The notes beneath the pieces were generated by a model. The model saw nothing but the letters and a program-made list of their open reading frames with translations, was not told the DNA's origin and did no database searches. This document shows positions 5,458 through 41,913 of a stretch of 64,000 nucleotides of DNA, piece after piece. The DNA lies in NCBI GenBank assembly GCA_021780675.1, contig JAJXYH010000004.1, positions 5,668 through 69,667 of the forward strand, given 5' to 3'. The position numbers and the translations under genes were made by a program. Positions within the stretch are counted from its first letter, which is position 1. Each line of letters begins with the position of its first letter. The DNA is from a bacterium (lineage in GTDB: Bacteria > Patescibacteriota > Microgenomatia > Levybacterales > UBA12049).

Positions 5458-5889
5458 TTAAAATTTATCTGTTTTAGGTTCAGAAATTCCTTCTATCCAT
5501 AGCGGTATTTTGTCTTTTGGGTCTCCATTATTATAGTTAAATGTTATTTCGTCATTTTTTTTAATATTATTTAATGCAATAAAATCAATTGTTTTGTTTT
5601 TTTGTCTAATCCTGTATTTTGCATTTGGTTTATATGTATGGTTATATATTGACCCAAAACCCAAAGCAATTGCCAGACGTTCTTTATTTTTACCAAAATA
5701 GAAAAAATAAGTAACCAAAATACTTTCATTTAGATTAGCCATGTCAAATTTTGGCAGTTCAATAATTGGGCATCTTTCGATAATTTCATCTTTCTTTATA
5801 TCACGTCTGGCAAAAACCCCCAGCCCCGCATTAAGAATTTTTGATTTATCTACATAAACCTTATCCGATGCTGCAATTTTATTCATCAT
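5458..5889 (-). CDS. SET domain protein (lysine methyltransferase-like)
   Basis: Motifs GLGVFARRDIKKDEII, NHTYKPNAKY (NHSCxPN-like) and DEITFNY are typical of the SET domain. Confidence 0.65.
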   Translation of the reverse strand: MMNKIAASDKVYVDKSKILNAGLGVFARRDIKKDEIIERCPIIELPKFDMANLNESILVTYFFYFGKNKERLAIALGFGSIYNHTYKPNAKYRIRQKNKTIDFIALNNIKKNDEITFNYNNGDPKDKIPLWIEGISEPKTDKF

Positions 5890-8327: not shown

Positions 8328-8415
8328 TTACAATAAAAATATAAATAAATAGAGTGAGTTTGACAAGGGGCAAAATCAACTTGACAAACATATAAAAAGA
8401 TATCAATATTTAAAT

Positions 8416-8991
8416 ATGGAGTCTTCCAGACGAATTGAGGCGGGAAATGATGGTTTTCACCCGAAGCCTGAATTAACTACTGTGCCCAAGCAACCAGCAA
8501 AAATAACCATATTCAAAGCTCCCAGACCAATATTAACAGACACTGCAACACATGAGCCAATATATGCCGGATTAATTACACCGGAGGGGTTTAATAGTTT
8601 AGAGGGAAATATGCAAGAAGCGGTTTTACTAAATTTAATGGAAACCGATAATAAAGATCAAATCAGAAAATTAAGGCCGGATTTTGAAATAGATAGACCA
8701 TTAACTTACGATGAAAAAAGACTTTCCGAATGGACAGCAAGCATTACTTCGCATGAAGAACCGATTCTTGCCCCACGGATAGAAATAGAGGATGGATTAT
8801 TCGCTCAAATTCATCATACAGTTTATTATGATTTTGAAAAAAGAGAAGATTTAGCGGTAGTCTTAGAAAGAGAAAGACAAAGAAGAATACAGTTTACGCC
8901 GGGACAATTTGCACCATCTGAAAATTTAGGTAAATACTCCGCAGCAATTCGTTATCGCGGAAACCTTGAAAGACAAATTCAAAATAAATAA
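8416..8991 (+). CDS. hypothetical protein
   Basis: 191 aa ORF divergent from 7755-8327. Confidence 0.35.
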   Translation: MESSRRIEAGNDGFHPKPELTTVPKQPAKITIFKAPRPILTDTATHEPIYAGLITPEGFNSLEGNMQEAVLLNLMETDNKDQIRKLRPDFEIDRPLTYDEKRLSEWTASITSHEEPILAPRIEIEDGLFAQIHHTVYYDFEKREDLAVVLERERQRRIQFTPGQFAPSENLGKYSAAIRYRGNLERQIQNK

Positions 8992-21081: not shown

Positions 21082-23155
21082 TTAAATAATCGCCTGTTCC
21101 CCACAATTTTTTGTAAATTTCTTCTGTAATAAACGGCATAAAGGGGTGAAGTAGTTTTAAAAAAATAAGGTAATTATCAAGTAGATTTGTGTATGTTTTT
21201 GTATTTATTCTTTGTTTGACATCCTCTATGTACTTATCTGCAAATTCATGCCAAATATACTCATATAAATTTTGGGCTGCATGATTAAAATCATATAAAT
21301 TAAGAAGTCTGGTAATATCTTTTGCCAATGCTTTTGTTTTTTCGGAAACTTCCTTATCGCCAGCCGACAAATCACCATCTTTTTTACTTTCTTTCCTTTT
21401 CATTTCAATAAATCTTGCCATATTCCAAAGTTTATTGGTGAATTTTCTGGCTGCATCAAGTTTGGGATAAGAAAGTGATTGATCATTACCAAGTGCGGTT
21501 CCATAAACTAAGGAAAACCTAACAGCATCTGCTCCGTACTGATCTACCAATTCTAATGGATCAACAACGTTTCCCTTTGATTTGCTCATTTTTTTACCAA
21601 GTGGGTCGTTAACCAAACCATGCAAAACCACGTTTTGAAATGGGATTTGCTTACTTTCGTTTTCCACTTCGAGTTTTTTTTGCACATACAACCCTAAAAC
21701 TACCATGCGTGCAACCCACCAACGTAAAATATCATATCCTGTTTCCATTACTGTTGTTGGATAATATTCTTGGTTGTTCGTGGTTTTTAAAGTTGCATAC
21801 GGCCATTGTCCTGATGAAAACCATGTATCAAATGTGTCTTCGTCTTGTATTAAATTTTTGGATGAGCAATTCGTGCATTTTTCAGGTGCATCACCCTCTG
21901 TTACTACCCAACTCTTACAATCTTTACATTGCCATGCAGGAATTCTAATCCCCCAAACAATTTGACGTGAAATATTCCAATCCTTAATATTTTCCAGAAA
22001 CTGAAAATACATTTTTTCCATGTCTTTAGGATATATTTTTATAGCACCTTTCTTTACTGCTTTTATTGCCGGCTCTGCCAGCGGCTTCATCTTTATAAAC
22101 CACTGTTCAAGTGGTAATGGTTCAATCGGATTTTTACATTTATAGCAAAGGCCAATTCTATGTTTGTAATTTTCATCTATGTGGTCTATTAGCCCTTTTT
22201 CCTGCATTTCTTCAACAATAGCTTTTCTTGCTTGCCTTACATACATGCCTGAAAATTTTCCTGCCCTTTCACCCATTGTTCCGTCGTAATTAATTACTTG
22301 AACCATTGGTAGATTATGTCTTAACGAAACTTCATAATCATTAAAGTCATGTGCTGGTGTTATTTTTACAACTCCTGTTCCAAATTCCATATCAACCATT
22401 TCATCGGCCACGACCTTAATTTTTGATTTTCCCAAAACAGTTTCTATTTCCAGTTCTTTGCCGATATATTTTTGGTATCTTTTATCTTTGGGGTTAACCG
22501 CAACTGCCGTATCACCAAATTTAGTCTCAGGCCTTGTGGTAGCTAAAACCAACGGGCCATATTTAATATAATAAAGCGGGTTTTGGCGCTCTTCATAAAT
22601 TACTTCAAGGTCTGAAAAGGAGGTTCCATCAAAAGTACAATAATTTACCAATCTTTTTGCTCTATATAAAAGTCCATCGTCATAGAGATTCTTAAAGGTT
22701 TTATAAACAATTTTTACAATATCATCATCCAAAGTAAATTTTCTATTAGACCAGTCAAGTGAAAAGCCTAATCTTTTTAGTTGTCCTTCCATAACCGGTC
22801 TATTTCCCTGTACAAAATCCCAAATCATTTTATATAAAGTTTCCCTATCGTAATCAAAGCGTGACTTTCCGTCTTGCTGTAACTTTTTTTCAAATACAAA
22901 TTGTGTTTCAAACCCTGCATGATCTGCACCGGGTAACCAAAGCGCCCTCCGGCCCTGCATTCTTTTAAATCTAATTAAAATATCCTCAATCACATACATT
23001 GCATGCCCAAAATGTAAAGGAGCGTTAGCGTTTGGTGGTGGTAAAATTATTGAGTATTCTTTCCCTTTATTAACTTCCGGTGAAAAAAATCCTTTTTCTT
23101 CCCATGTTTTGTAAATTTTCTCTTCAATACCCTGCTGATTATAAACTTTATCCAT
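21044..23155 (-). CDS. valS: valyl-tRNA synthetase (compact, no long C-terminal coiled coil)
   Basis: HIGH-type motif PNANAPLHFGHA and KMSKSKGN. The TRPETKFGDTAVAVNPKDKRY segment is typical of ValRS. Confidence 0.8.
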   Translation of the reverse strand: MDKVYNQQGIEEKIYKTWEEKGFFSPEVNKGKEYSIILPPPNANAPLHFGHAMYVIEDILIRFKRMQGRRALWLPGADHAGFETQFVFEKKLQQDGKSRFDYDRETLYKMIWDFVQGNRPVMEGQLKRLGFSLDWSNRKFTLDDDIVKIVYKTFKNLYDDGLLYRAKRLVNYCTFDGTSFSDLEVIYEERQNPLYYIKYGPLVLATTRPETKFGDTAVAVNPKDKRYQKYIGKELEIETVLGKSKIKVVADEMVDMEFGTGVVKITPAHDFNDYEVSLRHNLPMVQVINYDGTMGERAGKFSGMYVRQARKAIVEEMQEKGLIDHIDENYKHRIGLCYKCKNPIEPLPLEQWFIKMKPLAEPAIKAVKKGAIKIYPKDMEKMYFQFLENIKDWNISRQIVWGIRIPAWQCKDCKSWVVTEGDAPEKCTNCSSKNLIQDEDTFDTWFSSGQWPYATLKTTNNQEYYPTTVMETGYDILRWWVARMVVLGLYVQKKLEVENESKQIPFQNVVLHGLVNDPLGKKMSKSKGNVVDPLELVDQYGADAVRFSLVYGTALGNDQSLSYPKLDAARKFTNKLWNMARFIEMKRKESKKDGDLSAGDKEVSEKTKALAKDITRLLNLYDFNHAAQNLYEYIWHEFADKYIEDVKQRINTKTYTNLLDNYLIFLKLLHPFMPFITEEIYKKLWGTGDYLIVSKWPYEESTK

Positions 23156-23190
23156 TAAGCAATTTTAACACAAGGCTATGTAAGCTTCAA

Positions 23191-24492
23191 TTAAGGTTTA
23201 ATTAATTTGAATCCTCTTGTTTTTACTGTCTGTAGTTCAAAATTACTTTTTTGCAGTTTTAATTTTGTCCTTACTCTTCCCGCCAACTTATCAATTGCCC
23301 AGTCTGAAATTCCAAGCTCTGTTGCCTCCGGCCAAACAGTTTCTACAATTTTGTCCCTTTCACAGATTTGATTTTCATTTTCTTTTAAGTAATCAAAAAA
23401 TAGAAGTTCTTTTTTACTGAACTCTGCTCCGCTGTCTTTTGCCTCTTCCGTTACTCTTTCTTTAACAAAATATGAAAATAATGGGCTAAATATGTTATTT
23501 ATACCTGATCTTTGTATTACCATACCAACGTCCCAAAGATATGAAGCTTTATCTTTTTCCTGTTTTGAAACTCTATTGCCAGAGGAAATTTTAACCAATA
23601 TTTTTTGCTCATTCGTTGTTAAACTTTCCCAAATTTCTTCCGATTGAAGTCTAATTCTTTCATCACCAAGAAGAATTCGCTTTATGTCTTCTTGTTTTGA
23701 TATTTTAATCTCAGGATTGTGAAGTGCAATTAATCCAAGCTGGGCGTACTGAAAGTGACCATCAACAAGTTTTAAAAAGAATTTTTCAAGATCATCTGTT
23801 AATTTAACTTCATATCTTTTTTTATAAAGCCTTAATAAAATTAAACTATCGTCTTCTGCTGAAGGTTTAAAATAAATATTTTTGTAAAGAATTGATAAAG
23901 AAGAATTTTTATTAAGCTCGGGAGACAGATCGTTAAATGGAAGAAAACTGGTAAAAACATAGGTAAGCTGATAATGGGTAAATTCTCTAAGCCCTTCAAG
24001 GTTTGCAAATAATTGTGGTGTTAAAGCATTTTTTAACCTGTCAAACTTAATAAAAAATATTGTAGGAAGAAATCCTTCTTCTATAATTTTTTTAATAGAA
24101 AGCCTTACCGAGTCAATCGTAAAGAATAAATCTTGCAGCTGTATGCTTTCTAAAAAAAGTCCTCTAATTTCATTTTTTACACCCTCGTTAATATTTGAAT
24201 TTTCAATTGAGTCTACAACCCTTTTTAATGTAAGTGTCCAAAAGGGAGCTATGTCGCATTCTATTAAATCGTTTAAATTAACCGGTATAAAAAGGTGTTT
24301 GTCAGAATCTTGGAAATAGTTCTGAACTACATCCTTTCGGTTAATAAAAAAACTTAAAAAATTACCAATCCCAACTCTGGTAATGCCGATTAAAACAATT
24401 GATCTCCTGTTTGAAATATGTCCTGCCAAATCTTTAGCATCTTGGTATCTAAATATTAACGGTTGTTTATAGAGTACAGATGTCTTATCCAT
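23191..24492 (-). CDS. transcriptional regulator: N-terminal AAA-like NTPase domain (degenerate Walker A) fused to C-terminal OmpR/PhoB-type winged helix; paralog of 40480-41913
   Basis: C-terminal DKIVETVWPE...DWAIDKLAGRVRTKL...LQTVKTRGFKL is a trans_reg_C-like wHTH. N-terminal GITRVGIGNFL and FFIKFDRL resemble Walker A/B. Confidence 0.5.
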   Translation of the reverse strand: MDKTSVLYKQPLIFRYQDAKDLAGHISNRRSIVLIGITRVGIGNFLSFFINRKDVVQNYFQDSDKHLFIPVNLNDLIECDIAPFWTLTLKRVVDSIENSNINEGVKNEIRGLFLESIQLQDLFFTIDSVRLSIKKIIEEGFLPTIFFIKFDRLKNALTPQLFANLEGLREFTHYQLTYVFTSFLPFNDLSPELNKNSSLSILYKNIYFKPSAEDDSLILLRLYKKRYEVKLTDDLEKFFLKLVDGHFQYAQLGLIALHNPEIKISKQEDIKRILLGDERIRLQSEEIWESLTTNEQKILVKISSGNRVSKQEKDKASYLWDVGMVIQRSGINNIFSPLFSYFVKERVTEEAKDSGAEFSKKELLFFDYLKENENQICERDKIVETVWPEATELGISDWAIDKLAGRVRTKLKLQKSNFELQTVKTRGFKLIKP

Positions 24493-24931
24493 AATCCGTA
24501 TATTTTAAATGTATCTTCAAATATAATCAACTTTGTCAGGTTTTTGTCAAAAAGGAGTCCCTTAATAGTCAAGCTATAATATCTCTGTGTTTATAAAATA
24601 ACTTAAACATGAATACTGTAGAAACAAGAAAATATTATCTTCAAATGAACAATCTCATTGCCCGCACAGAGGCAAGAAGAAAGGCTGAAAAGGAAAAGGC
24701 CACCGCAACAGAAGGTCACGTAAAAAGTTCTTTGTCTATCGCCGAGACACCACCCCACATGAATACATCTTTAAACGGGCCTGTATTTGAAGCTTAATTT
24801 ATTTAGAATATTTATCCTCCAATACTTAAAAATTATTAGAATGTTTTTCAAATAACTTAATTATTTGTGATTTCTGTTTTAACCCTTAATAAACTATTAA
24901 ATTTATTTTTGTAAATAATCAAATAAAATCC

Positions 24932-25098
24932 TTGACAAAAGTTTTAAATATTAATCAAGAAACCTGGACAAAGTGTTTTAAATGTTGGACAAATTATTTT
25001 TTAGCTTCGGGGTTTTTATTAAAGTTTTTCGAGCCATCAAGCTTCTAAAATGATTTAAACAAAAAATATTCGAAACGGAAACTTAAAACTTAAGGACA
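24932..25098 (+). promoter_or_regulatory. direct repeats T(T/G)GACA...TTTTAAAT upstream of the regulator gene; possible OmpR-family binding sites
   Basis: TTGACA at 24932, TGGACA at 24965 and 24986, GGACA at 25094. Spacings of 33, 21 and ~107 bp approximate integral helical turns. Confidence 0.3.
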
Positions 25099-25120: not shown

Positions 25121-26833
25121 TTATAATCCAATTAGGTTAAAAATAGCTTGTTCGTTTTTGTTGTTAAAAATAATTATCATGTTTTTTTCTTTTATCTGAT
25201 TAATAACATAATTTACAAGTTCTAAACTTAAATATTTTTTAGGGCTAGCGTTTTGTTTTGTCAAAATTTTATTAAACTGATTTTGGAAATCCTTGTTAAC
25301 AATAATTAAACCTTGAATTTTATCTTGCGGGTTTAAATTTGTTAAAACTGCTGATAGACTTGCTTTGTTTGATAAATTATTGGGGTTAAAATTTTCTATT
25401 TTACCATTTTTCATATCAAACGTTGCATATGATGACAAAATGCTATTTCGAGAAAAAGATTTTGGATTTTCTGTAACAAGCAGTAGGTAGCTACTGCTTG
25501 TGTTATAAGCGATATTGTCTGCCCAAAAATCCGTTGTGGGGGTTAGTGAATATAAATTAGTTAAACTTGTTGTTCTATTTGTATTTCCTAATAAATACAA
25601 ATTGTAGTGTGCATTCTTGTAAAGTAGCATCGAACTCGCCAGATCTCTACCTACGTTTTTAGACTGTCCTGTTAATATATTCGAAAATGTAATTAAGAAA
25701 TTTGAGGTTTGACCGTACACATCTTCCAAAGCGGTATAATTATTAAAATTATTTTCTAGGTTTTTAAAGGTATTACCATTGTTAAAAAAACCAAACTCTG
25801 TTTTTAAAATATTATCGGAAACTATAAAAACAGGTTGTAAAAATTTTGTACTTTGATAAATAATGCTTGTGTATTCTAAATTTCCGTTGTCAAGTTGTGT
25901 TTTTGTATATCCAGTAATTATTTTTTGAGTGAAGCTTAATAAGGCAACAAAAATAAGCGGTAGAATAACCAAACTAAACAAAAATACGGTAGTTAAAAAA
26001 ATTGAGTTTTTATTTTTTATTTTTTTTACTTGTGGTTTTAATTGAATTTGATCCGTGGGGTCAAGATCTATTTTTTTTATCTTGTCTATTAGACTGTAAT
26101 TTTCTCCCAAAATGTACCTGCCGGTTAATTGTGGAAGTCCTTTCTTTTGGCGTTTTGCTTCTTCTACAAAATTTAATCTTATTTCTGGATGAATTTTTTT
26201 AAATGCTGCGGCAAAGGTCAGTAATGTAATCTTGTTTTGAGGATAAATTAGAAACAGTTTCTCTTTATTCTCAGAAAAACTAATTTCCAGGATTGCGTCT
26301 ATTAAATCGTCAATTAAAACAGGGTAAACCTCTCCTGTTCCGTCTCCCGGAATATTAATTTTCCATTCCCTTTTTATTCCCTCCAGTATTGTATTTATGG
26401 TGTTATTAAAACCTATTACGCTTTTCGTGCCAAAAACATCCCCATAAACACCGATTTTGAATTGCTCCTGCTCAAAAGCAGAAGCTAAATACGTTTTACT
26501 ATTTAATTGTTCATAATCAACGATAAAAAGCAAAAGAGAATTATCTTTTTTTGCTCTCTTTATAAAAAAATCTACTGTCTTTTTGTCGTATTCGATTTTT
26601 TCATCTATAACAATTATGTGGGAGAATACATTATCAGGAATCTGATGTAAATTATTTTTATATGGAATATGTATTATTTTATTTAGAGATGGTTTTTTAG
26701 GGCTTACTAAAATAACTTCTATTTCTTGCTGTATTTTAGCTGCCAGGTTTTCACCAATTAATCCTTTTGTGTCAACGATTAATATTGGGTTATTTTTATT
26801 GTCAACTGTAGTAAAAAAGGCGGAGCGGCTCAT
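25121..26833 (-). CDS. membrane protein: N-terminal cytoplasmic Rossmann-like domain, one TM, large extracytoplasmic domain; hypothetical
   Basis: 570 aa. ILIVDTKGLIGENLAAKI GxxGxxG-like start. TM at about residue 275. Confidence 0.35.
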   Translation of the reverse strand: MSRSAFFTTVDNKNNPILIVDTKGLIGENLAAKIQQEIEVILVSPKKPSLNKIIHIPYKNNLHQIPDNVFSHIIVIDEKIEYDKKTVDFFIKRAKKDNSLLLFIVDYEQLNSKTYLASAFEQEQFKIGVYGDVFGTKSVIGFNNTINTILEGIKREWKINIPGDGTGEVYPVLIDDLIDAILEISFSENKEKLFLIYPQNKITLLTFAAAFKKIHPEIRLNFVEEAKRQKKGLPQLTGRYILGENYSLIDKIKKIDLDPTDQIQLKPQVKKIKNKNSIFLTTVFLFSLVILPLIFVALLSFTQKIITGYTKTQLDNGNLEYTSIIYQSTKFLQPVFIVSDNILKTEFGFFNNGNTFKNLENNFNNYTALEDVYGQTSNFLITFSNILTGQSKNVGRDLASSMLLYKNAHYNLYLLGNTNRTTSLTNLYSLTPTTDFWADNIAYNTSSSYLLLVTENPKSFSRNSILSSYATFDMKNGKIENFNPNNLSNKASLSAVLTNLNPQDKIQGLIIVNKDFQNQFNKILTKQNASPKKYLSLELVNYVINQIKEKNMIIIFNNKNEQAIFNLIGL

Positions 26834-26843
26834 TTACCTTATT

Positions 26844-27272
26844 TTAGGGATTATTTAATTTATTGTCTAGCGCAATATTAACAAGGGCATCTGCTTGTTT
26901 ATTTTTTTCTCTTGGAATGTGGTTATAAAAAATTGGGACGGAAAGTATATTCTCAAGTGTTTTTACTTCAAAAACCAAACTTCTAATTGATTCATTTTTG
27001 ACCTTATAAAGACCTGTAAGCTGAGAGTAGGCGAGTTGGGAATCCATATAAAAAGTAATCTTGTTTATATTTTCTTTTTGTTTATTTTCTACAGCCCAAT
27101 CAAGTCCGCTAATTATCGCCTGATATTCGGCAGTATTATTTGTAGTTTCGCCAATATATTTGGCAATTTTGGCAAGTGGTATACCCTCCGAATTAGTTAT
27201 ATATGCTCCGAGCGCAGCAGGACCCGGGTTTCCTCTTGATCCTCCGTCTGTGTAAATTATAATATCGGCCAT
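26844..27272 (-). CDS. rnhA: ribonuclease HI
   Basis: IYTDGGSRGNPGPAALG, TNNTAEYQAII and YMDSQL catalytic DEDD motifs. Confidence 0.8.
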   Translation of the reverse strand: MADIIIYTDGGSRGNPGPAALGAYITNSEGIPLAKIAKYIGETTNNTAEYQAIISGLDWAVENKQKENINKITFYMDSQLAYSQLTGLYKVKNESIRSLVFEVKTLENILSVPIFYNHIPREKNKQADALVNIALDNKLNNP

Positions 27273-27311
27273 ATTGCAGTTTATTAAATTAAGCTCAAAA
27301 TATAAATGAGG

Positions 27312-27755
27312 CTATTTAGGCTTTACAATTAAAACCCTGTTTTTTCCTTCTCCGCTGGATTCCGTTAAAACTTCATCGTCATTTTGCAAAACCATATGAA
27401 CAACTCTTCTTTCCCAGGCTTTTAAATCTGTTAAGTAAACTTCTTTTTGACCAAATAGGGCTTTTTCTTTTGCATCCAGTGCTAATTTCTCAAGCCACTC
27501 TTCGCGGTTTTTTTTATAATCTCCAACTTCTATTGAAACTCTCTTAAAAACTCCTGTTTCTTTTGCCAAAATTAAAGCTAAAATAATTTGTAAAGCTTCT
27601 AGGGTTTCTCCGTGGTAACCAATTATTATCCCCGAGTCTTCGGTTTCTAAATTTACAAATATTGTTTCATCTTCTTCTTTTACTTCGGTTTTTGCATTCA
27701 GTCCTAAAAGTTCAAGAAATTTCTTTATTGTATTTTCTGGTTTATTTTTTGCCAT
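27312..27755 (-). CDS. jag: Jag/KhpB-type RNA-binding protein (KH + R3H domains)
   Basis: GIIIGYHGETLEALQ (KH) and a C-terminal R3H-like segment. Conserved position downstream of yidC. Confidence 0.65.
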   Translation of the reverse strand: MAKNKPENTIKKFLELLGLNAKTEVKEEDETIFVNLETEDSGIIIGYHGETLEALQIILALILAKETGVFKRVSIEVGDYKKNREEWLEKLALDAKEKALFGQKEVYLTDLKAWERRVVHMVLQNDDEVLTESSGEGKNRVLIVKPK

Positions 27756-28572
27756 ATATTTTATCTATCCATTCTTTAAGCCCACCCAGGCCTGAAACTT
27801 TATACTGCTGTATGATACCAAAAATAGTGAAAGTATTCCAGTATAGCGATAGACCAATAGGGAAGTTGTAGGAAAAAAATCCAATCATTACAGGCATAAG
27901 ATAAGTCATTTGCGTTTGCATGGCGGATGTGAAATCCTCACTTCCTTTTTCTCCCTTTTTAGCAAGTTTGTTTTTTTCTTCTGCAGTTTTTGGAGCTGCC
28001 GTAATCATCATTTTTGACTGAATTAACTGAAAAACGCCGGTAAGTATTGGAACCAATAAGACCATCCAACCCATTGTTAAAATAAGGTGTGATGGGTTTT
28101 GACCAAGCGGAAGTCCAAAAAAAGTTAAATCCCAAGCCTTTGTGAGCTTAAGCTGTTCAGAATATAAAACTTTATTTACCGATGCTATATTGTATTTAAC
28201 AACATCTTGTAAAACATTATATAAAGCGTATATGAGCGGAAGCTGTATAAGAAGAGGTAGACACCCTGCCATTGGATTAACACCAAATTCTTTGTAAAGC
28301 TTCATTGTTTCTGCCTGTAGTGTTTTAGCGTCATCTTTATGTTTTTCTTTAAGTTTTGCAAGGTGAGGATTTAATTCCTGCATTTTTTTTGTTGCCTTAA
28401 GCTGAGATGTGGTAAGGGGATACAAAACTAATCTAATTACAATTGTTAACACTATTATGGAAAATCCCAGGGCAAACGGAATGTGTAGAAAATTTAAAGA
28501 TTGATAAATTACTACTATTACGTTTATTAATGGGTGAGACAGATAAAGAAAATTTGAAATATCTCCGTTCAT
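27742..28572 (-). CDS. yidC: membrane protein insertase YidC
   Basis: 276 aa. Conserved GCLPLLIQLPLIYALY and a C-terminal basic tail. Confidence 0.85.
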   Translation of the reverse strand: MNGDISNFLYLSHPLINVIVVIYQSLNFLHIPFALGFSIIVLTIVIRLVLYPLTTSQLKATKKMQELNPHLAKLKEKHKDDAKTLQAETMKLYKEFGVNPMAGCLPLLIQLPLIYALYNVLQDVVKYNIASVNKVLYSEQLKLTKAWDLTFFGLPLGQNPSHLILTMGWMVLLVPILTGVFQLIQSKMMITAAPKTAEEKNKLAKKGEKGSEDFTSAMQTQMTYLMPVMIGFFSYNFPIGLSLYWNTFTIFGIIQQYKVSGLGGLKEWIDKIYGKK

Positions 28573-28574
28573 AA

Positions 28575-28787
28575 TTAATATCCTTTATAAAATGGTTGGC
28601 ATTTTAAAAGCCTTAAAACCGATAAATAAGATCCTTTAATCGTACCATGCTTGCTAATTGAGGTTTTTGCATATTCGGAGCATGTTACTGAAAACCTACA
28701 GCCACTATTTACCCCAAAAAGCTGCACAAACGCTGGTGAGATAAGTTTTTGATACAAATTTATTGTTTTAATAATTAATGTTTTCAT
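28575..28787 (-). CDS. yidD: membrane protein insertion efficiency factor YidD
   Basis: YQKLISP...CRFSVTCSEYA motif. Confidence 0.8.
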   Translation of the reverse strand: MKTLIIKTINLYQKLISPAFVQLFGVNSGCRFSVTCSEYAKTSISKHGTIKGSYLSVLRLLKCQPFYKGY

Positions 28788-29112
28788 TCAAAATTCCTGC
28801 TTTTTTAAAAATCTTTCCCATTTGTAAAAGAATATCTTCCTCGTCTTTAAATTCAAGAATTGTTTTTGCAATAACAATTATACTTATTCCCGGTTTAAAG
28901 TTTTTAATAAAGCTTTTAATCGCTTTTTTTAAAACCCTTTTTGTCTTGTTTCTATCAACTGCCCTTTGGGCTGTTTTTTTAGAAATGACAAACATGTGAT
29001 CTTTATTACCTTCTTTATTTAGATAAATTTTTATCCTAAATAGGGAAGTGTCAAAAATTTCCGCTTTTTCTTTATTATTTAAATAAAACGGGCGGTTTGT
29101 TTTTTTAAGCAT
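28768..29112 (-). CDS. rnpA: ribonuclease P protein component
   Basis: 114 aa basic protein with KTAQRAVDRNKTKRVLKKA. Position between rpmH and yidD. Confidence 0.8.
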   Translation of the reverse strand: MLKKTNRPFYLNNKEKAEIFDTSLFRIKIYLNKEGNKDHMFVISKKTAQRAVDRNKTKRVLKKAIKSFIKNFKPGISIIVIAKTILEFKDEEDILLQMGKIFKKAGILNENINY

Positions 29113-29247
29113 TTAAACTGTTAGTTTTTTTCTGTTTGCCGATTTTCTTCTTTTTAAAAGCTTTTTTCCCGAGTGTGTTTTTGATCTTTGCAAAAACCCG
29201 TGTTTTTTTGCTCTTTTTCCTTTCTTTAAAGTTATAAATTTTTCCAT
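29113..29247 (-). CDS. rpmH: 50S ribosomal protein L34 (not in ORF track, 44 aa)
   Basis: Reverse translation gives MEKFITLKKGKRAKKHGFLQRSKTHSGKKLLKRRKSANRKKLTV, the L34 signature (...THGF..R......G...L..RR.KGR..LTV). Confidence 0.85.
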   Translation of the reverse strand: MEKFITLKKGKRAKKHGFLQRSKTHSGKKLLKRRKSANRKKLTV

Positions 29248-29370
29248 TCTCAAAGTATACCAGAACTTAACATTGTTTTAAAGACGCTGTGTATTTTGAA
29301 AACGATATAGTTTTATCCACTTTTGTTATCTTGACAAAAAGTTATCCACATTATTAAACTGCATAACACA
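29248..29370. promoter_or_regulatory. oriC-type region: DnaA boxes between rpmH and dnaA
   Basis: TTATCCACt at 29313-29321 and a perfect TTATCCACA at 29342-29350. Confidence 0.6.
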
Positions 29371-30729
29371 ATGCAAGACTATAAAGATACTTGGAATAAG
29401 ATTCTAGCAGAGGTTGAACTGGAGGTATCCAGAGCTAACTTTCTTACGCTTTTTAAAAGAACGCAAATCCTGTCTATTGAAGACGGGGTAGTGACAATTG
29501 CCGCACCGTCCGCAATGATTGTCGATCTTTTGCAACGAAGGTTTTATGAAGTAATTAAAAAATCAACCGATAAGCATGTTGGGGAAAACTCAAAGCTTGT
29601 TTTTGTTCCAAAAACAATCGCTGAAAATATTGAAAAAGTACATGATGATCCCAATACTCTTTTTGCCAACAGTGGTGTTCAAAAGACAAGTTCTGTGGCA
29701 AGACCCCCAAGAGTAAGAGTAGATTATACTTTTGAAAACATGGCAGTTTCTTCGAGTAATCAACTCGCTTTTGTTAGTGCCTCAACTGTTGCAAAAAAAC
29801 CGGGCGATACCTATAACCCCTTGTTTATTTATGGCCCAACAGGGGTTGGAAAAACCCACCTTATGCAGGCAATTGCAAATGAAGTTTTTAAAAATAAACC
29901 AAATGGTAAGATTTTGTATACGACCAGCGAAGAGTTTACCAACGAAGTTGTTGAGGCCATAAGAACCAACAATACACAAAACATGAAGAAAAAATTTAGA
30001 GATTTGGATTTACTTATTATCGATGACATTCAGTTTGTAGCCGGCAAAGAGAGGGTTCAAGAAGAGCTATTTCACACCTTTAACACGCTCGTTGATAAAA
30101 ATTCACAGATTGTTCTTTCATCCGATAGAAGGCCTGAAGAAATTAAACAGGTTGAAAAAAGGCTTATTTCTCGGTTTTCCGGAGGTTTAACTGTTGACGT
30201 TGATATTCCGGATTTTGAACTTCGAACTGCAATACTTTTAATAAAGGCTAAAAAATATGATTGTGAGTTAAGCATAGATGCTGCAAAACTTATTGCACAA
30301 AAAGCCTCTGATGCAAGGGGATTAGAAGGACTTTTATTAAGAATAATTACCCAGGCACAAGCGCTTAATAAAGATATCGACGAAAGTTTAATCTCTTCTG
30401 TTTTGTCTCTTAGTAGGGACGAAAAAATTAACTCTTTTCATCCCGATGAATTAATTAAAAACATTTGTAATTACTACAATGTTAAACCAACACAGCTTAA
30501 AAGCCCCAAGAGGGATGCTTTTTTGGTTAGACCAAGACAAATTGCAATGTATTTATTAAAAAAAGAGGTTGGCTTAACATTTGTTGAAATTGGTAACCTT
30601 TTGGGGGGGAGAGACCACACAACTGTTATGCACGGAGTTGAAAAGGTGGAAAACCTTTTGGAAAACCCCTTAGTTTCAGAGGATATCATGAGGATAAGTA
30701 AAAATATTGTTGATAAAAATGTGGATTAA
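29371..30729 (+). CDS. dnaA: chromosomal replication initiator DnaA
   Basis: Walker A GPTGVGKTHL, Walker B LLIIDDIQF, C-terminal DNA-binding domain (GGRDHTTVMHG). Confidence 0.9.
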   Translation: MQDYKDTWNKILAEVELEVSRANFLTLFKRTQILSIEDGVVTIAAPSAMIVDLLQRRFYEVIKKSTDKHVGENSKLVFVPKTIAENIEKVHDDPNTLFANSGVQKTSSVARPPRVRVDYTFENMAVSSSNQLAFVSASTVAKKPGDTYNPLFIYGPTGVGKTHLMQAIANEVFKNKPNGKILYTTSEEFTNEVVEAIRTNNTQNMKKKFRDLDLLIIDDIQFVAGKERVQEELFHTFNTLVDKNSQIVLSSDRRPEEIKQVEKRLISRFSGGLTVDVDIPDFELRTAILLIKAKKYDCELSIDAAKLIAQKASDARGLEGLLLRIITQAQALNKDIDESLISSVLSLSRDEKINSFHPDELIKNICNYYNVKPTQLKSPKRDAFLVRPRQIAMYLLKKEVGLTFVEIGNLLGGRDHTTVMHGVEKVENLLENPLVSEDIMRISKNIVDKNVD

Positions 30730-30857
30730 TAGAATTGTCTTTTAACCCCCTTTTTTTACACATTCTTATCAACTCTTTATCCACATTTTTTTGAGGTTGC
30801 CTTCTTGCTTTTTTCCACTTTTCAATATAAACTACTACAACTACAAATAGTAAATAT
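30730..30857. promoter_or_regulatory. dnaA-dnaN intergenic DnaA-box/AT-rich region (second part of origin)
   Basis: TTATCAACT at 30766-30774, a perfect TTATCCACA at 30777-30785, then an AT-rich stretch at 30800-30857. Confidence 0.55.
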
Positions 30858-31964
30858 ATGAAAGTATCTTTTCTTTCAGATAAACTTCAAGAGAAGCTTG
30901 CCTTTTTAAACCATGCTGTTTCCATAAGAGGACAGCTTCCAATCCTTTCTTGTTTTTTAATAGAAGCAGGTAAAGGAAAACTTCATATAAGCTCAACGGA
31001 CCTAGAAATAGGAATAACTTCAAGCATAGCCGCAAATGTTGAAAAAGAGGGAAAGGTTGCAATACCAGCAAAAAATTTTACAGATCTTTTATCTAATCTG
31101 GAAAATAAAAAAATAACTCTGGTTCAGGAAGGAGAGGTTTTAAATTTGACAGGAGAAAAAGTTAAAGCGTCGTTTCAGATTATGAATAACGAAGAATTCC
31201 CCAAGCTATACGAAGACGAAGGAGAAATGATAGTATCGTTAAAACCTGAAGAAATAATGAAATACTTTCAAAGAGTAGGGTTTGCTGCATCTTCTGTTGA
31301 GACCTCTCGCCCGGCACTATCGGGGGTTCTTTTCGACAAGGAGAAAGAAGGGGTAGTTGTGGTAGCAACGGACAGTTACAGGCTTTCTTTACAGAAAAAC
31401 GTTTTCAAGACAACACAAAGCCTTAAAAAGCCACTTGTAATACCGTCTAGAGTAATTAGAGAATTAATGTCGATAAAAACAGATGGAACAATAAAAGTAC
31501 ATGTTTCCGAAAAGAATAATCAAGTTTTGTTTTTAACTCAGGAAACAGTTTTGGTGGGAAGACTCATAGAAGCGGAATACCCCGAATATCAGAAAATAAT
31601 TCCAAACGAATTTTCAACAAAAACAGAAGTAGGAAGAGAGGATCTTCTTAAAGCAGTTAGAATTGCATCTGTTTTTGCAAGAGAGACAGCAAACATCGTG
31701 AGGTTAATAATTGAAAAGTCAAAAATTACTGTTTCTGCAAATTCACCGTCGGTTGGGGAGGATGCCGTAGAAATTGAAGCTAAAACTACGGGGGAAAACA
31801 ATGAAATTGCATTTAACGCAAAATACCTTTTAGATATACTTTCAATTCTTGACGTAGAAGAAGTTGTATTTGAAATGAATAATCCTTTAAGCTCGGGGGT
31901 TTTTAAAATTAAAGGAGACAACTCCTTTCTACATCTTATAATGCCGATTAGGGTACAGGGGTAG
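30858..31964 (+). CDS. dnaN: DNA polymerase III beta sliding clamp
   Basis: 368 aa, three-domain clamp. Conserved LSGVLF, ATDSYRL and IMPIR motifs. Confidence 0.9.
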   Translation: MKVSFLSDKLQEKLAFLNHAVSIRGQLPILSCFLIEAGKGKLHISSTDLEIGITSSIAANVEKEGKVAIPAKNFTDLLSNLENKKITLVQEGEVLNLTGEKVKASFQIMNNEEFPKLYEDEGEMIVSLKPEEIMKYFQRVGFAASSVETSRPALSGVLFDKEKEGVVVVATDSYRLSLQKNVFKTTQSLKKPLVIPSRVIRELMSIKTDGTIKVHVSEKNNQVLFLTQETVLVGRLIEAEYPEYQKIIPNEFSTKTEVGREDLLKAVRIASVFARETANIVRLIIEKSKITVSANSPSVGEDAVEIEAKTTGENNEIAFNAKYLLDILSILDVEEVVFEMNNPLSSGVFKIKGDNSFLHLIMPIRVQG

Positions 31965-37803: not shown

Positions 37804-38202
37804 TTAGAAAGCTGTGGAGCCATTAATGTTTGGAATGACGACATTAGACAATGTATTAAGTCCAAAGAACTGGAGTATTAAGTTCAAAACCAAGTATGAA
37901 AGGAATATGATTACCAAACCAACGATTGCTGCAACAATATGTTCTCTAGCCGAAGCAACAGCTTGTTTGTCTCCGCCGGATGTTAACCATTTAAATCCTC
38001 CCCAAACAAGATAGAGAAGTGCAACTAAAATTGCTACTGCAAAAATTAAAGCAATCACAGTACCAACGATTGAACCGATATTATTGGAGCTTAAAGCACA
38101 AAGATGATTATATGGTCCTGCACATGCATCAACAGCAAAAGCAGGAACTGTAACTGTAAGAAATACTGCTGCGGGGGTAACCAGTGCGATTGCTTTTTTC
38201 AT
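37804..38202 (-). CDS. VirB2/TrbC-type T4SS pilin-like protein
   Basis: Signal peptide (AFA-VD). C-terminal LYLVWGGFKWLTSGGDKQAVASAREHIVAAIVGLVIIFLSY. Confidence 0.6.
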   Translation of the reverse strand: MKKAIALVTPAAVFLTVTVPAFAVDACAGPYNHLCALSSNNIGSIVGTVIALIFAVAILVALLYLVWGGFKWLTSGGDKQAVASAREHIVAAIVGLVIIFLSYLVLNLILQFFGLNTLSNVVIPNINGSTAF

Positions 38203-38271
38203 GTATATATTTATACTAATAAAGTTTTGATTTGTTTGTCAAGTACCAATTTAGCTTCAATTTAACATTAA

Positions 38272-39003
38272 TTAAAGAGTCGGTACGTTAAAAAACTGTA
38301 AGATAAGATTTACAATCAAAGCAGCAAGAAATACTATAATCAAACCAACGATTGCAAAAATAACTTTTTGTCTGGCAGAGGTTAAAGTCTGTTTGTTTCC
38401 ACCGGACATTAACCAGTCAAATCCTCCCCAGACCAGGTAAAAAAGCGCAAGAAGAATTGCAATTACAAACAAAATGTTTATTCCGAAGGCAAGAGCAGTA
38501 TTGTATTTTACAATAGGTACTCCGCCCGGCTGTCGCGCTTTAAAGAAATTTGCCAAAGTATCTAAAGCAACTGCGGGATTAACTTCGCCCCAATTCCCCC
38601 AACTGTTACCGGTTTGAGTACCATTATTATTTGAAATACATCCTGCAGAATGATCACATTTGTCTCCGGTTGAGCAGGTTAATGTTATTATATTGCAGGT
38701 TGTTCCTTGTGGGGCACCACTGCTTGGAAAGCAATTCTGAGTGGTTCCTTCCCAGTTGCAGTTTTGTGGACAGGTTTTACAATTCCCGCCAGAAGCAACA
38801 CAACAAACTCCCAATCCACCCTGACCACCTAATGAACAGACCCTAGTACTATCAACATATTGATTCGCTTGGCCACAAGTTGTTACACCGTTTGCTACGC
38901 AATCCAGGCATCCTGGAGGAAGGAGCGCTCCTTGGGCAACAGGGGTTTTAATCACGAAAATAAATAATAATAAAAAACTAAAAAAATAAAATAATTTTTT
39001 CAT
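38272..39003 (-). CDS. VirB2/TrbC-type pilin-like protein with Cys-rich N-terminal ectodomain
   Basis: Signal peptide, ~25 Cys in the ectodomain. C-terminal FYLVWGGFDWLMSGGNKQTLTSARQKVIFAIVGLIIVFLAAL. Confidence 0.6.
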   Translation of the reverse strand: MKKLFYFFSFLLLFIFVIKTPVAQGALLPPGCLDCVANGVTTCGQANQYVDSTRVCSLGGQGGLGVCCVASGGNCKTCPQNCNWEGTTQNCFPSSGAPQGTTCNIITLTCSTGDKCDHSAGCISNNNGTQTGNSWGNWGEVNPAVALDTLANFFKARQPGGVPIVKYNTALAFGINILFVIAILLALFYLVWGGFDWLMSGGNKQTLTSARQKVIFAIVGLIIVFLAALIVNLILQFFNVPTL

Positions 39004-39005
39004 AA

Positions 39006-40454
39006 TTATTGATTAAAAATATTTAATATATCAACTCCAATGAAATTCATAAGGGTAAATGTAAAAATTATTAGAACCAGTCCTACAATTGCTGCAGTTA
39101 ATTGCTCCTGCGCATCTTTAGTTTTTTCGGGGTTTCCTTGTGAAACTATTAATTTATAAGCGGAGTAAATTATTAAAAGTGTTGCGATTCCGCCTGCAAT
39201 AGATAAAATAATTGAAAAGATTTTTGAAACTAACCCCTGAGAATCAGTGCTAAAATTACCAAATGCTGTTGGGCAAGTTGTTATATATTTCCCGTTCACA
39301 AGGGTTGTCGTGCAGGGAAGTTGACCGTTGGTAAATCCAGAACCAAGCCCCCCTCCACAACCAACCCCTTCAACGCACTGACTGGAGCTACAGCTTTGGT
39401 AAGTTGGAGAAGTAGTCAAAGCGGGTATATCTGGATGACTTTGTCTAGTACATTTTTGATTTTCCTGATTGGCAAGACTATTAAAAGTATAACCGCTAGG
39501 GCAGACAGCACAGTCTGTTCCTCCTCCTCTGCAGTGTGTTGCAGTACAGTCTGAAGCGCTGGTATAAGCCCCTGTCCCCGTACCTGTATGCACTACGCAT
39601 CCATATTGTGTGCAGTCATACCCGCCGCGGTTTGCATCAGCAGACCAAGTGCAACAGGTTTGAGTTGCGGCGCTTTGGCTTTTGCAGTAGGCGTTTCCAC
39701 TTGAGGTTATAATTCCCCCTGCTTGATGGCAGACGTTATTATTAGCTACACACTCTCCATCTCCTCCAGCGGGTGCAAAAGACTGGCAGGTTGGCGGTTC
39801 ACACTTGTTGGTTTTTAAATTACAGGTGTAACCTGTGTTTGCCCCACTACAGCTTCCATCAGCATTAGCGCTACAGGAGACTGTTAAATTGCAGTTCTTA
39901 TTGTAAACTAATCCACAATTTTTTGTGCCGCAAATTGCTGCTTGAGTGCAGCTTGGTGAAACGCATTTGCCGCTTCCCTGGTCCCATGAATAACCAGAAC
40001 TGCAAAGGCATTCTAAAATCGGTACCGCACCCGATTGGTTTGAATCTATACAGTTTAAACCAAGATTTGGTTTACATTGATACGTTCCATCGCAAGATTG
40101 ACCATAAGTTTTGTAATATGTGCAAACTCCAGTAGTTTTATTGGTATAAGCGAGAATAGAATTGCACGTACACATGCCATTTGGAGTGTAATATGTGGTG
40201 CAAGTTTGTTTACCTGTTGTGGGGTCGGTGACACATGTTTCATGTGAAGTATCTGTAGGGTTACTACAATACGTTGGGTAGCAACAAATACCAGGTGTTG
40301 CACCGCACGGCGCATTGGTGTTGGGCGTGCAATCTACCGCGGCAGCTGCCCAGGCATTATTTTTTAAAGGGGCTAAAGTAAAAAATAATATAAATAATAA
40401 AATTGCAGGAAACAAAAACTTAAGCAAACGCTTCATAAAATTATAGTAGAACAA
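39006..40454 (-). CDS. VirB2/TrbC-type pilin-like protein with large (~400 aa) Cys-rich ectodomain
   Basis: Signal peptide, about 60 Cys. C-terminal AYKLIVSQGNPEKTKDAQEQLTAAIVGLVLIIFTF pilin module. Confidence 0.55.
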   Translation of the reverse strand: MFYYNFMKRLLKFLFPAILLFILFFTLAPLKNNAWAAAAVDCTPNTNAPCGATPGICCYPTYCSNPTDTSHETCVTDPTTGKQTCTTYYTPNGMCTCNSILAYTNKTTGVCTYYKTYGQSCDGTYQCKPNLGLNCIDSNQSGAVPILECLCSSGYSWDQGSGKCVSPSCTQAAICGTKNCGLVYNKNCNLTVSCSANADGSCSGANTGYTCNLKTNKCEPPTCQSFAPAGGDGECVANNNVCHQAGGIITSSGNAYCKSQSAATQTCCTWSADANRGGYDCTQYGCVVHTGTGTGAYTSASDCTATHCRGGGTDCAVCPSGYTFNSLANQENQKCTRQSHPDIPALTTSPTYQSCSSSQCVEGVGCGGGLGSGFTNGQLPCTTTLVNGKYITTCPTAFGNFSTDSQGLVSKIFSIILSIAGGIATLLIIYSAYKLIVSQGNPEKTKDAQEQLTAAIVGLVLIIFTFTLMNFIGVDILNIFNQ

Positions 40455-40479: not shown

Positions 40480-41913
40480 TTAGTCTACGAATTTAAAACC
40501 ACGCCCTTTAACAGTTAAAATATGAATTGGGCTGTTAGGGTTATTTTCAATTTTTTTTCTCAACCTAAAAATTAATTGATCTAAAGCCTGGTCGGTTACA
40601 CCCAACGTGGTTTTTTGGTTTCCCCAAACAGCGTTAATGATGTCTTCTTTTTCTAAAATCTTTTCTTTCTGAGAGATTAAAAATTTTAATAACTTAAATT
40701 CGGAAGAAGTTAAATTATCGGAAATTACACCTTCGCCCAGTTTAATTTCATTAGTGTTTTCATCAACAGTTAATTTAAGACCGGTTTTTACAGTTTGGGA
40801 TTTAATAATTGCGTTTTTAATAAATTCTCCAAATAGCGGAATTGTTACTTTTCCACCGGAAACAAGGAAGATTTTTTCTAAAAAAGGTTGTTGTTCTTTG
40901 TTGTCGATAAAATATTGCTGCTCTGAAGGGTTTAAACTGTTCCAGATAGAGAAAAGCGAGCTTCTTACCGGGCGCTGTGAAAGCAAATAAGTTATTAATT
41001 GGTTGTTTTCGGAAATTAATTTTTTTTCGGCGGTAAGTGCCGATTCAAGCGAAAGAATGGTTAGTCTTCCGTGTCCTGCAGTTAATTTTGATATTTCATC
41101 AAGCATTTTTTTATCGACTTTTTTATTGATTATTTTTTCAAGATATGAAATTCTAAAATCAAGACCCGGCTTGTCTAAGATGGGCAAATAGATAATTTTT
41201 TCCGCCAAATATTCAAAAAAATCGGCAAAAAGCATTGGTTCAGTTACATCTTCGAGGGGTTTATTTAAAGAAAATACAGCAGAAAAATAATATTTTGCCC
41301 TGTTTCTTAAAACTCTAAGGTTGGCAAAAAATTCGTTTGTGAGCATCGGAATATATTCTTCGAATCTATCAAAAAGGAGAATCAGTTTTAAATTTCTTTC
41401 AACACATAAATAGTCAATTGTTTTTTTAAGGCCTGCAAAAAGCACCATTTCATCGTTGAACCCGATACTCTCTTTAAAATAGTTATTAATTACTTCGTAC
41501 TCTTTTTTTAAACCTCTTTCGCGCAAGGAATCTAAAATTCCCAAGAAGATAAATTTATTTGCATCAAATAACGGTCTTTTTCTAATTTCGGAAAAGTTTA
41601 AAAGGACAAAATGAAAATTTTTCTGATTTTCCCCAAGATGAATAAGTCTTACTTTTTTATTGTAAGAAAGGAGCCCCAAAAGATTAGATCTGCCAACACC
41701 CGGAATAGATACGACTTGACAGGAATTGCCCTCTTTTATAAATTTGAGAATTTTTTCAATTTCTTCAAATCTTGAATTTTGCGGGTATAAACTTTCGAAA
41801 TGTTCTGTTTCCATAAAGATATTGTAATTTTTTTGTAATACAAATATCAAGCTAAAAAATTCCCGCGGATTTAAAATTTTGGCATATGAAAGAACGCGGA
41901 GATGAATTGACAA
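40480..41913 (-). CDS. transcriptional regulator: AAA-like NTPase domain (GVGRSN Walker A variant) + C-terminal OmpR/PhoB-type winged helix; immediately upstream of pilin operon
   Basis: VVSIPGVGRSNLLGLL, LILLFDRFEE. C-terminal INAVWGNQKTTLGVTDQALDQLIFRLRKKI...ILTVKGRGFKF. The true start is probably the internal METEHF. Confidence 0.5.
   Translation of the reverse strand: MSIHLRVLSYAKILNPREFFSLIFVLQKNYNIFMETEHFESLYPQNSRFEEIEKILKFIKEGNSCQVVSIPGVGRSNLLGLLSYNKKVRLIHLGENQKNFHFVLLNFSEIRKRPLFDANKFIFLGILDSLRERGLKKEYEVINNYFKESIGFNDEMVLFAGLKKTIDYLCVERNLKLILLFDRFEEYIPMLTNEFFANLRVLRNRAKYYFSAVFSLNKPLEDVTEPMLFADFFEYLAEKIIYLPILDKPGLDFRISYLEKIINKKVDKKMLDEISKLTAGHGRLTILSLESALTAEKKLISENNQLITYLLSQRPVRSSLFSIWNSLNPSEQQYFIDNKEQQPFLEKIFLVSGGKVTIPLFGEFIKNAIIKSQTVKTGLKLTVDENTNEIKLGEGVISDNLTSSEFKLLKFLISQKEKILEKEDIINAVWGNQKTTLGVTDQALDQLIFRLRKKIENNPNSPIHILTVKGRGFKFVD

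Follow-up and report, generated by a model that had tools for sequence, protein, structure and literature searches.

Which DNA do two regulators recognise, and which genes do they control, when each ends in a DNA-binding domain of the OmpR/PhoB type and neither has a receiver domain? The question is raised by a 64,000-nucleotide (nt) stretch of DNA, a patescibacterial chromosome segment with a guanine-plus-cytosine content of 35.6% and with metagenome-assembled genomes of Candidatus Levyibacteriota as its nearest public records (positions 5,668 to 69,667 of contig JAJXYH010000004.1, assembly GCA_021780675.1), which we call the window and which encodes two such proteins, here named regulators A and B. 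An earlier note, made by a model from the sequence alone, had described them as paralogues that join a degenerate AAA-like nucleoside triphosphatase (NTPase) domain to a C-terminal OmpR/PhoB winged helix, and had taken them for one-component, possibly nucleotide-gated activators. To our knowledge, almost nothing is known of transcription control in Patescibacteria, also called the Candidate Phyla Radiation (CPR), a group that is largely uncultured and in which few regulators can be recognised.

Here we propose, with a probability of roughly 60%, that A and B are one-component regulators combining a STAND (signal transduction ATPase with numerous domains) module with an OmpR-type domain, A acting on a phased operator array to activate a small divergent gene and B acting on a pilin operon. 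Proteins of the OmpR/PhoB type recognise direct repeats arranged in tandem with a period of about 11 bp, and the Pho box of E. coli, CTGTCAT-N4-CTGTCAT, lies at the -35 position of its promoters. In the mechanism that we propose, the decayed STAND module would most likely serve as a scaffold for head-to-tail oligomerisation and not as a hydrolysing switch, and an oligomer of A would most likely bind four TGACA-type half-sites 11 bp apart at 24534-24573. This array would stand between A's own promoter and a divergent promoter with a -10 box and no -35 box, its last half-site at about -37, where bound A could recruit RNA polymerase and switch on a near-leaderless, fast-evolving small protein gene at 24609-24797. 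The same array abuts the -35 box of A, which would also allow autoregulation. Regulator B would recognise a different sequence and most likely control its own operon, which runs into genes for VirB2-type pilins of a type IV secretion system (T4SS).

Architecture of the two regulators

Both genes were called as open reading frames (ORFs) and their products align over their full length with 25% identity (E 4e-20), so the two copies are indeed paralogous; no further A/B paralogue was found in the 64-kb window. The second copy had been placed at 40480-41913, and the frame is open to that point, but homologues of B begin at an internal ATG at 41814 and are 444 residues long; the gene callers agree, and a protein 100% identical to B has been called from this ATG on 11 contigs. 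We therefore place B at 40480-41814, its start being most likely the ATG at 41814. A and B belong to separate, large orthologous families (at least 730 and at least 1089 database proteins, respectively, at E ≤ 1e-3), and these co-occur on the same long contigs, which argues that the duplication is old and that both copies have been maintained. The A/B family is largely confined to Patescibacteria, and such proteins are already in the databases, labelled only 'winged helix-turn-helix' or hypothetical; what is new here is the fold assignment, the history of motif decay, the operator and the predicted small-gene target.

At the extreme C-terminus both proteins exceed the gathering cut-off of the Pfam family Trans_reg_C (26.2 bits), A with 32.9 bits over residues 357-430 and B with 69.8 bits. 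The OmpR/PhoB-type winged helix of A spans residues ~355-433 and the Trans_reg_C domain of B is complete; a B-family profile compared with the PDB matched only DNA-binding domains of the OmpR/PhoB type (RegX3, DrrB, PhoB, KdpE, ToxR and CadC). Neither protein has a receiver domain: there is no Response_reg match in A or B, and the NCBIfam response-regulator models align only with the output domains, over the C-terminal ~80-100 residues from model position ~120-160 on, at scores far below their cut-offs. Across the A family the recognition helix and wing (S396-K410 and T425-K429) form the most invariant stretch of the protein, and the recognition helix of B differs from that of A at several positions.

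The N-terminal part has the fold of a P-loop NTPase of the STAND/ORC type. Residues ~1-340 of A form a STAND-like module of nucleotide-binding domain, lid and winged helix, and the order in both proteins is nucleotide-binding domain, helical lid, winged helix and OmpR-type winged helix, so that the three parts that define the STAND fold (nucleotide-binding, helical and winged-helix domains) are all present. TnsC, MuB and BrxC are also among the fold matches. The AlphaFold 2 models of A and B are confident; in that of A the P-loop is the least confident part of its domain. No curated STAND family model reaches its threshold with A or B, the best being AAA_35 at 13.7 bits against a cut-off of 27, and within the B family 6 of 23 members match AAA_35 weakly and one each matches AAA_16 and nSTAND1. 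Neither Pfam nor the models reveal a C-terminal repeat or sensor domain (TPR, WD40, LRR or SUPR) in A or B, the OmpR domain being the end of the protein. The one-component layout that the earlier note proposed, an NTPase-like module with an OmpR/PhoB winged helix and no receiver, is thus borne out.

The catalytic motifs are another matter. A Walker-A-like loop written GxxRxGxxN and an hhhhFDR strand had been noted, and both are present and invariant in the families. In A the P-loop reads GITRVGIGN (residues 36-44), within a family pattern of G-M/I-K/T-R-V-G-I-S/G-N (for example GMKRVGIS) that has an invariant Ile at the position of the Walker Lys, and the Walker B strand reads FFIKFDR (residues 146-152, with F150-D151-R152). 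In B the loop is SIPGVGRSN, where Lys has become Arg; P-G39-V-G41-R42-S43-N44 is invariant in its family, Arg again standing at the Lys position, and the Walker B strand is LLFDRFEE (D149-R150-F151-E152). Both proteins thus have an Arg directly after the Walker B Asp, and neither has a canonical Walker A (GxxxxGK[ST]) or an acidic Walker B.

Remote relatives show what was lost. A phmmer search with the N-terminal 340 residues of B against 1.84 billion cluster representatives matched 390 clusters, and among 64 members taken from these, Trans_reg_C is found in 53, AAA_16 in 37, nSTAND1 in 35 and AAA_35 in 5; about 49 of the 64 have a canonical GxxGxGKS loop, about 12 an A-type loop and 2 a GRS loop. 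Trans_reg_C in 53 of 64 relatives, together with members outside Patescibacteria such as one Anaerolineaceae protein, indicates that fusion of a STAND-like NTPase with an OmpR domain at the C-terminus characterises the family and extends beyond this phylum. The ATPase motifs of A and B have decayed from the canonical state that relatives keep, the catalytic lysine having been lost twice independently. With Ile in A and Arg in B at this position, the nucleotide gating suggested in the earlier note becomes doubtful, and we regard it as unlikely for A and uncertain for B. The gene contexts of the remote relatives with GKS loops are unrelated and contain no small-ORF module of the kind described below. 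We found no publication that describes the combination of a STAND-like NTPase with a C-terminal OmpR domain.

A phased operator array next to A genes

Aligning the 130 nt upstream of A orthologues brought out a conserved operator with the consensus gCTTGAC-N7-gA-N8-cTGACA-N6-CTGACAa. Its four half-sites start exactly 11 bp apart in the orthologous arrays, the second being degenerate, and GGACA occurs as a half-site variant in some of them; read on the plus strand, the array is TGTCA-N6-TGTCA...GTCAAG and resembles a Pho box. About 10 nt beyond the array consensus follows TTGMTA-N17-TACAAT and then the ATG, and this arrangement recurs in orthologous promoters. The array in the window abuts A's own -35 box; the -10 box is predicted to lie 9 nt before the ATG, which would make the transcript near-leaderless. 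An alternative A promoter, TTGACA-N16-GATTAT, was rejected as a conserved promoter, since most orthologues have CTGACA at this place.

The exact core TGACA-N6-TGACA occurs once in the window. With one mismatch allowed, 45 of 80 orthologous loci have it on the coding strand in the 160 nt that precede A, against a background of 0.0046 per 160 bp, and cores with spacers of 4, 5, 7 or 8 nt occur at only 0-3 of these loci. At B loci the array was found in none of 73, so we rejected it as an operator of B orthologues. When the element was defined as a composite, the core plus GTCAAG at +34, a search of 1.19 Mb returned 46 copies, of which 38 adjoin an A gene and the other 8 lie within 4 kb of one; there was none in the ~0.5 Mb around B genes. 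The strict linkage of the element to A genes, its OmpR-type geometry, the invariant recognition helix and wing of A, which parallel the invariant half-site, and the differing helix of B, a protein whose loci lack the element, all point to A as the probable binder of the array.

The divergent small gene

On its other side the array faces a divergent small ORF (Table 1), to which it stands in fixed register. At 28 loci the ATG of the divergent ORF is 71-75 nt from the array start (75 nt in the window), and 27 of these 28 have a TAnnnT box 4-9 nt before the ATG, which falls 19-20 nt after the plus-strand array. No -35 consensus was found in this divergent promoter, and the GTCAAG half-site occupies the -35 position. 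Because the array is oriented and phased before the small ORF as a Pho box would be, the small gene is probably its main target and autoregulation of A is probably secondary.

The complete divergent ORFs encode 47-108 amino acids (aa). In five within-clade pairs the ratio of nonsynonymous to synonymous substitution rates (dN/dS) is 0.16-0.32, indicating purifying selection, so the small ORFs are real coding genes. Their products are hypervariable and cluster only within clades: no Pfam family was found for ten positional equivalents tested, and a search of 5.8 billion proteins with the small ORF of the window returned only itself. At one locus (L017) the array occurs three times, every copy with a small divergent ORF next to it.

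Although overall homology between them is undetectable, many of the small proteins (at loci L001, L004, L005, L007, L017, L027, L050, L057 and L068) start with M-x-[IVL]-x-E-[LF], and the same set has a short motif like h-x-D-P-x-[TG]-G-x-[IL], for example IHDPRGEIK, IHPDTGIKI or SRDPLTGEI. Such resemblances hint at a common, very diverged origin.

Table 1. Positions in the window of the two regulators, their predicted control elements and associated genes
Feature	Position	Strand	Details and source
Regulator A	23191-24492	minus	433 aa; ORF call
Predicted promoter of A	24502-24530	minus	-35 TTGATT 24530-24525, 17-nt spacer, -10 TAAAAT 24507-24502; consensus scan
Conserved operator	24534-24573	minus	four direct half-sites, 11-bp period; consensus of A orthologue promoters
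Half-sites of the array	24573-24568, 24561-24557, 24549-24545, 24538-24534	minus	cTTGAC, GGGAC (degenerate), TGACA, TGACA
Predicted -10 box of the small ORF	24594-24599	plus	TAAAAT; TAnnnT pattern across loci
Divergent small ORF	24609-24797	plus	62 aa, orphan; ORF call
Distal repeats	24932-24995	plus	TTGACAAAAG 24932, TGGACAAAG 24965, TGGACAAAT 24986
Three T4SS_pilin genes (VirB2/TrbC-like)	37804-40454	minus	PF18895, Pfam; directly downstream of B
Regulator B	40480-41814	minus	444 aa, open frame extends to 41913; architecture as in A
Promoter of B	41821-41850	minus	TTGATA 41850-41845, 18-nt spacer, TACAAT 41826-41821, 6 nt before ATG

Regulator B and the T4SS-like cluster

The promoter of B differs from that of A and lacks the TGACA array. 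Its consensus, GCTTGATATttAC.TTAcAAAAa..TTACAAT, stands 4-6 nt before the ATG; it was derived from 24 distinct sequences, 25 of the 74 B promoters having the CTTGA[TC]A anchor. TTACA (41838-41834) lies in the unusually conserved spacer and yields three TT[GA]NNA repeats 12 and 11 bp apart; these may, speculatively, be B's own operator.

The first pilin gene starts 25-43 nt after the stop codon of B, and the pilin genes are followed by PrgI-like, VirB4-like and C39-peptidase-like genes. A pilin operon had been placed beside the second copy, and one is there; its pilins are of the VirB2/TrbC-like T4SS kind (PF18895), in company with PrgI-like and VirB4-like genes, and not those of type IV pili. 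Of 34 informative B loci, 23 have a pilin gene downstream on the same strand and 8 more have one elsewhere in the ±4 kb flanks, which makes B a good candidate regulator of the T4SS-like pilus cluster, with the pilin genes as its likely targets.

Several features of this neighbourhood are recorded here in their own right. The first two pilin-domain proteins (38272-40454) have cysteine-rich N-terminal extensions of ~400 and ~170 aa before the VirB2-like C-terminal domain, and their equivalents vary greatly in length between loci. Four ORFs near the cluster match no Pfam family: 41886-44282 (798 aa), 44287-46071 (594 aa), 47180-48901 (573 aa) and 52649-55627 (992 aa). Its many predicted membrane segments make the 594-aa protein a possible VirB6-like component. 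Where the gene upstream of B is co-directional, the 40-60 nt before the ATG of B consist of lineage-specific tandem repeats of ~9-10 nt, such as CTAGTTGCTA..., AACAATGAAACAATC... or GATTAAAGATTAAGG... (loci L085, L088, L093, L095, L098, L119 and L131). Leaderless or nearly leaderless genes seem common in this DNA, with -10 boxes 4-9 nt before the ATG of A, B, the small ORF and the 798-aa gene divergent from B, which has a conserved TAAACTG-N3-5-CATATG on its strand; no Shine-Dalgarno sequence is evident at the leaderless-looking genes (window 41815-41888 and 24493-24502, and B loci).

Distal repeats and the surroundings of A

The earlier note had proposed autoregulation through three to four direct repeats at 24932-25098, beyond the small ORF. 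Three same-strand [TG]GACAA sites are present, at 24933, 24966 and 24987, spaced by 33 and 21 bp, and the first two are followed by TTTTAAAT (24942-24949 and 24976-24983). Among Markov sequences of intergenic composition, 0.035% contain three same-strand sites of this kind within 70 bp, as do 3.7% of 64-kb Markov windows, so the cluster exceeds chance, though not overwhelmingly. The fourth unit, GGACA at 25094-25098, lies 107 bp away and has no counterpart in the nearest relative (locus L001, 65% protein identity). The note had staked its proposal on recurrence in orthologous promoters, from which the repeats are largely absent: a TTTGTCCA pair ~21 bp apart occurs in L001 only, among 80 orthologous loci, and we rejected the repeats as a conserved promoter feature. 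The distal motif was likewise not found upstream of copy 2. The general idea of OmpR-type direct repeats close to the regulator's own gene holds, but the conserved operator is the proximal array and not these repeats, with which it has a common GACA core; the repeats may be an auxiliary operator or a relic of a second cassette.

TTGACAA was rejected as a specific motif, being a general extended -35 sequence of this genome that stands upstream of dnaA, tmRNA, pilin genes and others. Elsewhere in the window, sites of this sort form a same-strand pair at helical spacing just once: two TTGACAA motifs stand 21 bp apart at 8360-8390, immediately upstream of an uncharacterised 191-aa gene (8416-8991).

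The 628-bp intergenic region that separates A from its upstream neighbour yielded little else. A tblastn search with eight long orthologues of that neighbour gave no trace of ~300 C-terminal residues, so the region was rejected as its decayed 3' part; a non-coding RNA was also rejected, as Rfam gave nothing credible at gathering thresholds or at E ≤ 5, and no tRNA was found there. The upstream gene itself (25121-26833) has a product of 570 aa in the window and of 579 aa in L001, against 855-900 aa for the orthologues at loci L003, L004, L007, L012, L023 and L025; no Pfam family was found for the 570-aa protein. Just downstream of its stop codon is a 32-nt block (25061-25092; L001 2961-2991), TTTTAAGTTTCCGTTTCGAATATTTTTT on the minus strand. 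The window and L001 agree over this block at 90% identity, whereas the intergenic DNA on either side shows no conservation; no hairpin resembling a terminator was detected at the block.

Downstream of A, synteny is kept: valS follows directly in most orthologous loci. The 35-nt gap between A and valS (window 23155-23191) contains a TG-extended promoter-like site, TTGAAG-N17-TAAAAT (23190-23162), from which valS may have its own promoter. A lies ~5 kb from the chromosomal origin region (window 26844-31964), which has on the minus strand RNase H (26844-27272), a KhpB/Jag-like KH-R3H gene (27312-27755), yidC (27742-28572) and rnpA (28768-29112), and on the plus strand dnaA (29371-30729) followed by dnaN (30858-31964).

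Discussion

The protein architecture, the motif decay and the conservation, phasing and linkage of the array are observations; from the linkage and geometry of the array we infer that A binds it, that A does so as an oligomer, and that the outcome is activation. Several points weigh against this proposal. Of the 80 orthologous A promoters, 34 lack the array; autoregulation can therefore not be universal, and in those genomes, where A is next to a co-directional gene or to a divergent pgk or fba gene, A must act on other targets. Seventeen arrays have no ORF at the canonical distance, and the small ORF of the window is an orphan that may be truncated relative to that of L001. The predicted DNA-binding domain of A lacks the N-terminal beta-sheet of a canonical Trans_reg_C domain. 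Binding of the array by A is deduced from sequence, and another OmpR-family protein encoded elsewhere could be the binder; nucleotide binding by the decayed P-loops is a candidate property, and the leaderless starts are likewise predictions.

The thought of another binder can be sharpened into a rival that we consider unlikely, namely that the array serves as a true Pho box, or is bound by some other response regulator with receiver and OmpR domains encoded elsewhere in the genome, and that A is merely its neighbour. The small-ORF strand does carry TGTCA-N6-TGTCA, the core of the E. coli Pho box, at the -35 position, and other OmpR-type domains were sought within 64 kb of the genome. But all 46 composite elements in the 1.19 Mb lie within 4 kb of an A gene and none in the sequence around B genes, the genes that flank the module of small ORF, array and A vary between loci, and no phosphate-uptake genes are associated with it. 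The proposal from which this study set out, in which a nucleotide-gated activator would regulate its own gene through the distal GGACA...TTTTAAAT repeats, is improbable. The three GACAA sites are above chance, their GACA core recurs in the array, GGACA is a half-site variant in some orthologous arrays and L001 has a similar pair; against this, the repeats lie 440-500 bp upstream of A beyond the divergent ORF, 79 of the 80 orthologous loci do not have them, their fourth unit is not conserved, and A has lost its P-loop lysine.

That A acts on the array, but mainly as a repressor that shuts both divergent promoters or as an architectural protein with an ORC/DnaA-like role on iteron-like repeats, also has little probability in our estimate. 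Such a role would suit a fold like that of Orc1/Cdc6 and of TnsC/MuB, which polymerise on DNA, an array that abuts A's near-consensus -35 box, and an origin region ~5 kb away. Yet the divergent promoter has no -35 box and bears a half-site in Pho-box orientation in its place, the classic layout of an activator site, and the array keeps a fixed register to the -10 box and ATG; the ATPase motifs that initiators and loaders need are decayed. With these motifs lost, a normal dnaA in the window and an array phased to promoters, A and B do not qualify as initiators of the Orc1/Cdc6-DnaA kind. Least probable, and very much so, is that the element is a promoter for an alternative sigma factor, or that it marks the boundary of a mobile small-gene cassette or a site at which such a cassette recombines. 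The hypervariable small ORFs, the multiple cassette-like copies at L017 and the likeness of GCTTGAC to a -35 box fit this idea, but as a -10 box TGACA would be poor, four half-sites in strict 11-bp phase are what OmpR-family sites typically show, neither an integrase nor a transposase accompanies the element, and it remains next to a gene in which an OmpR recognition helix is the most invariant part.

Activation of the small gene by array-bound A, which we prefer, can be taken one step further, although we think this extension rather doubtful. The pseudo-ATPase STAND-OmpR fusion and the diversifying small protein might form a two-gene module in which a head-to-tail oligomer on the array activates the small gene, and the small protein might in turn be a ligand or partner of the sensor-less STAND module, closing a feedback or signalling circuit, while the paralogue, built on the same chassis, would govern T4SS-like pilus genes in episymbiotic Patescibacteria.

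The biology proposed here is plausible without being startling; for the study of gene regulation in Patescibacteria it is a handle of a rare kind, one that experiments can test directly. The family is widespread and typical of the lineage, has a defined fold, and shows an evolutionary path that leads from the canonical P-loop into two distinct states of decay. For A there is a precise, conserved operator with a predicted target, testable with recombinant protein and synthetic DNA and without culturing; B is a candidate controller of T4SS-like pilus genes, which are thought to be important for contact between CPR bacteria and their hosts.

Comparison with known systems

Functionally, the closest systems are the STAND-type transcription activators, MalT/LAL and AfsR/large SARPs, with PhoB at Pho boxes also close; A and B belong to neither of the two activator groups, nor to the response regulators. 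From PhoB they differ in having no receiver domain and no phospho-acceptor Asp, although the C-terminal fold and Pfam family are the same, and any oligomerisation would use the NTPase-like module in place of dimers of phosphorylated receivers. The array beside A likewise resembles a Pho box in its TGTCA core, its 11-bp direct-repeat period, its -35 position and its orientation to transcription, but has four half-sites where a Pho box has two.

The archaeal-type ATPase_2 proteins (PABY2304, 2qen; SSO1545, 2fna) and Orc1/Cdc6 have canonical Walker A and B motifs and no OmpR domain, and are 12-14% similar in sequence to A and B. The families nSTAND1 (PF20703), AAA_16 and AAA_35 are matched by remote relatives, whereas A and B stay below threshold; nSTAND1 has been described in conflict and immunity systems, and the paper that defined it mentions neither OmpR nor winged helix-turn-helix fusions (PMC8195603). 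The possible circuit of A and the small protein, if true, would be loosely comparable to regulator-peptide pairs of the Rgg/SHP type.

In MalT/LAL proteins the NTPase is N-terminal, as in A and B, but the C-terminal DNA-binding domain is a LuxR-type helix-turn-helix where A and B have an OmpR/PhoB-type domain; MalT/LAL proteins have a C-terminal sensor arm (SUPR/TPR) that A and B lack, and the replacement of the P-loop Lys by Ile or Arg makes an ATP-driven switch doubtful in A and B. AfsR and the large SARPs start with an OmpR-type DNA-binding domain, followed by BTAD, NB-ARC and TPR, whereas in the much smaller A and B (433-444 aa) the order is reversed, with the DNA-binding domain at the C-terminus, and neither BTAD, by Pfam, nor TPR was detected, which sets them apart from the SARP/AfsR proteins. 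To MalT and AfsR the A/B family adds a third arrangement in which a STAND module is linked to a DNA-binding domain.

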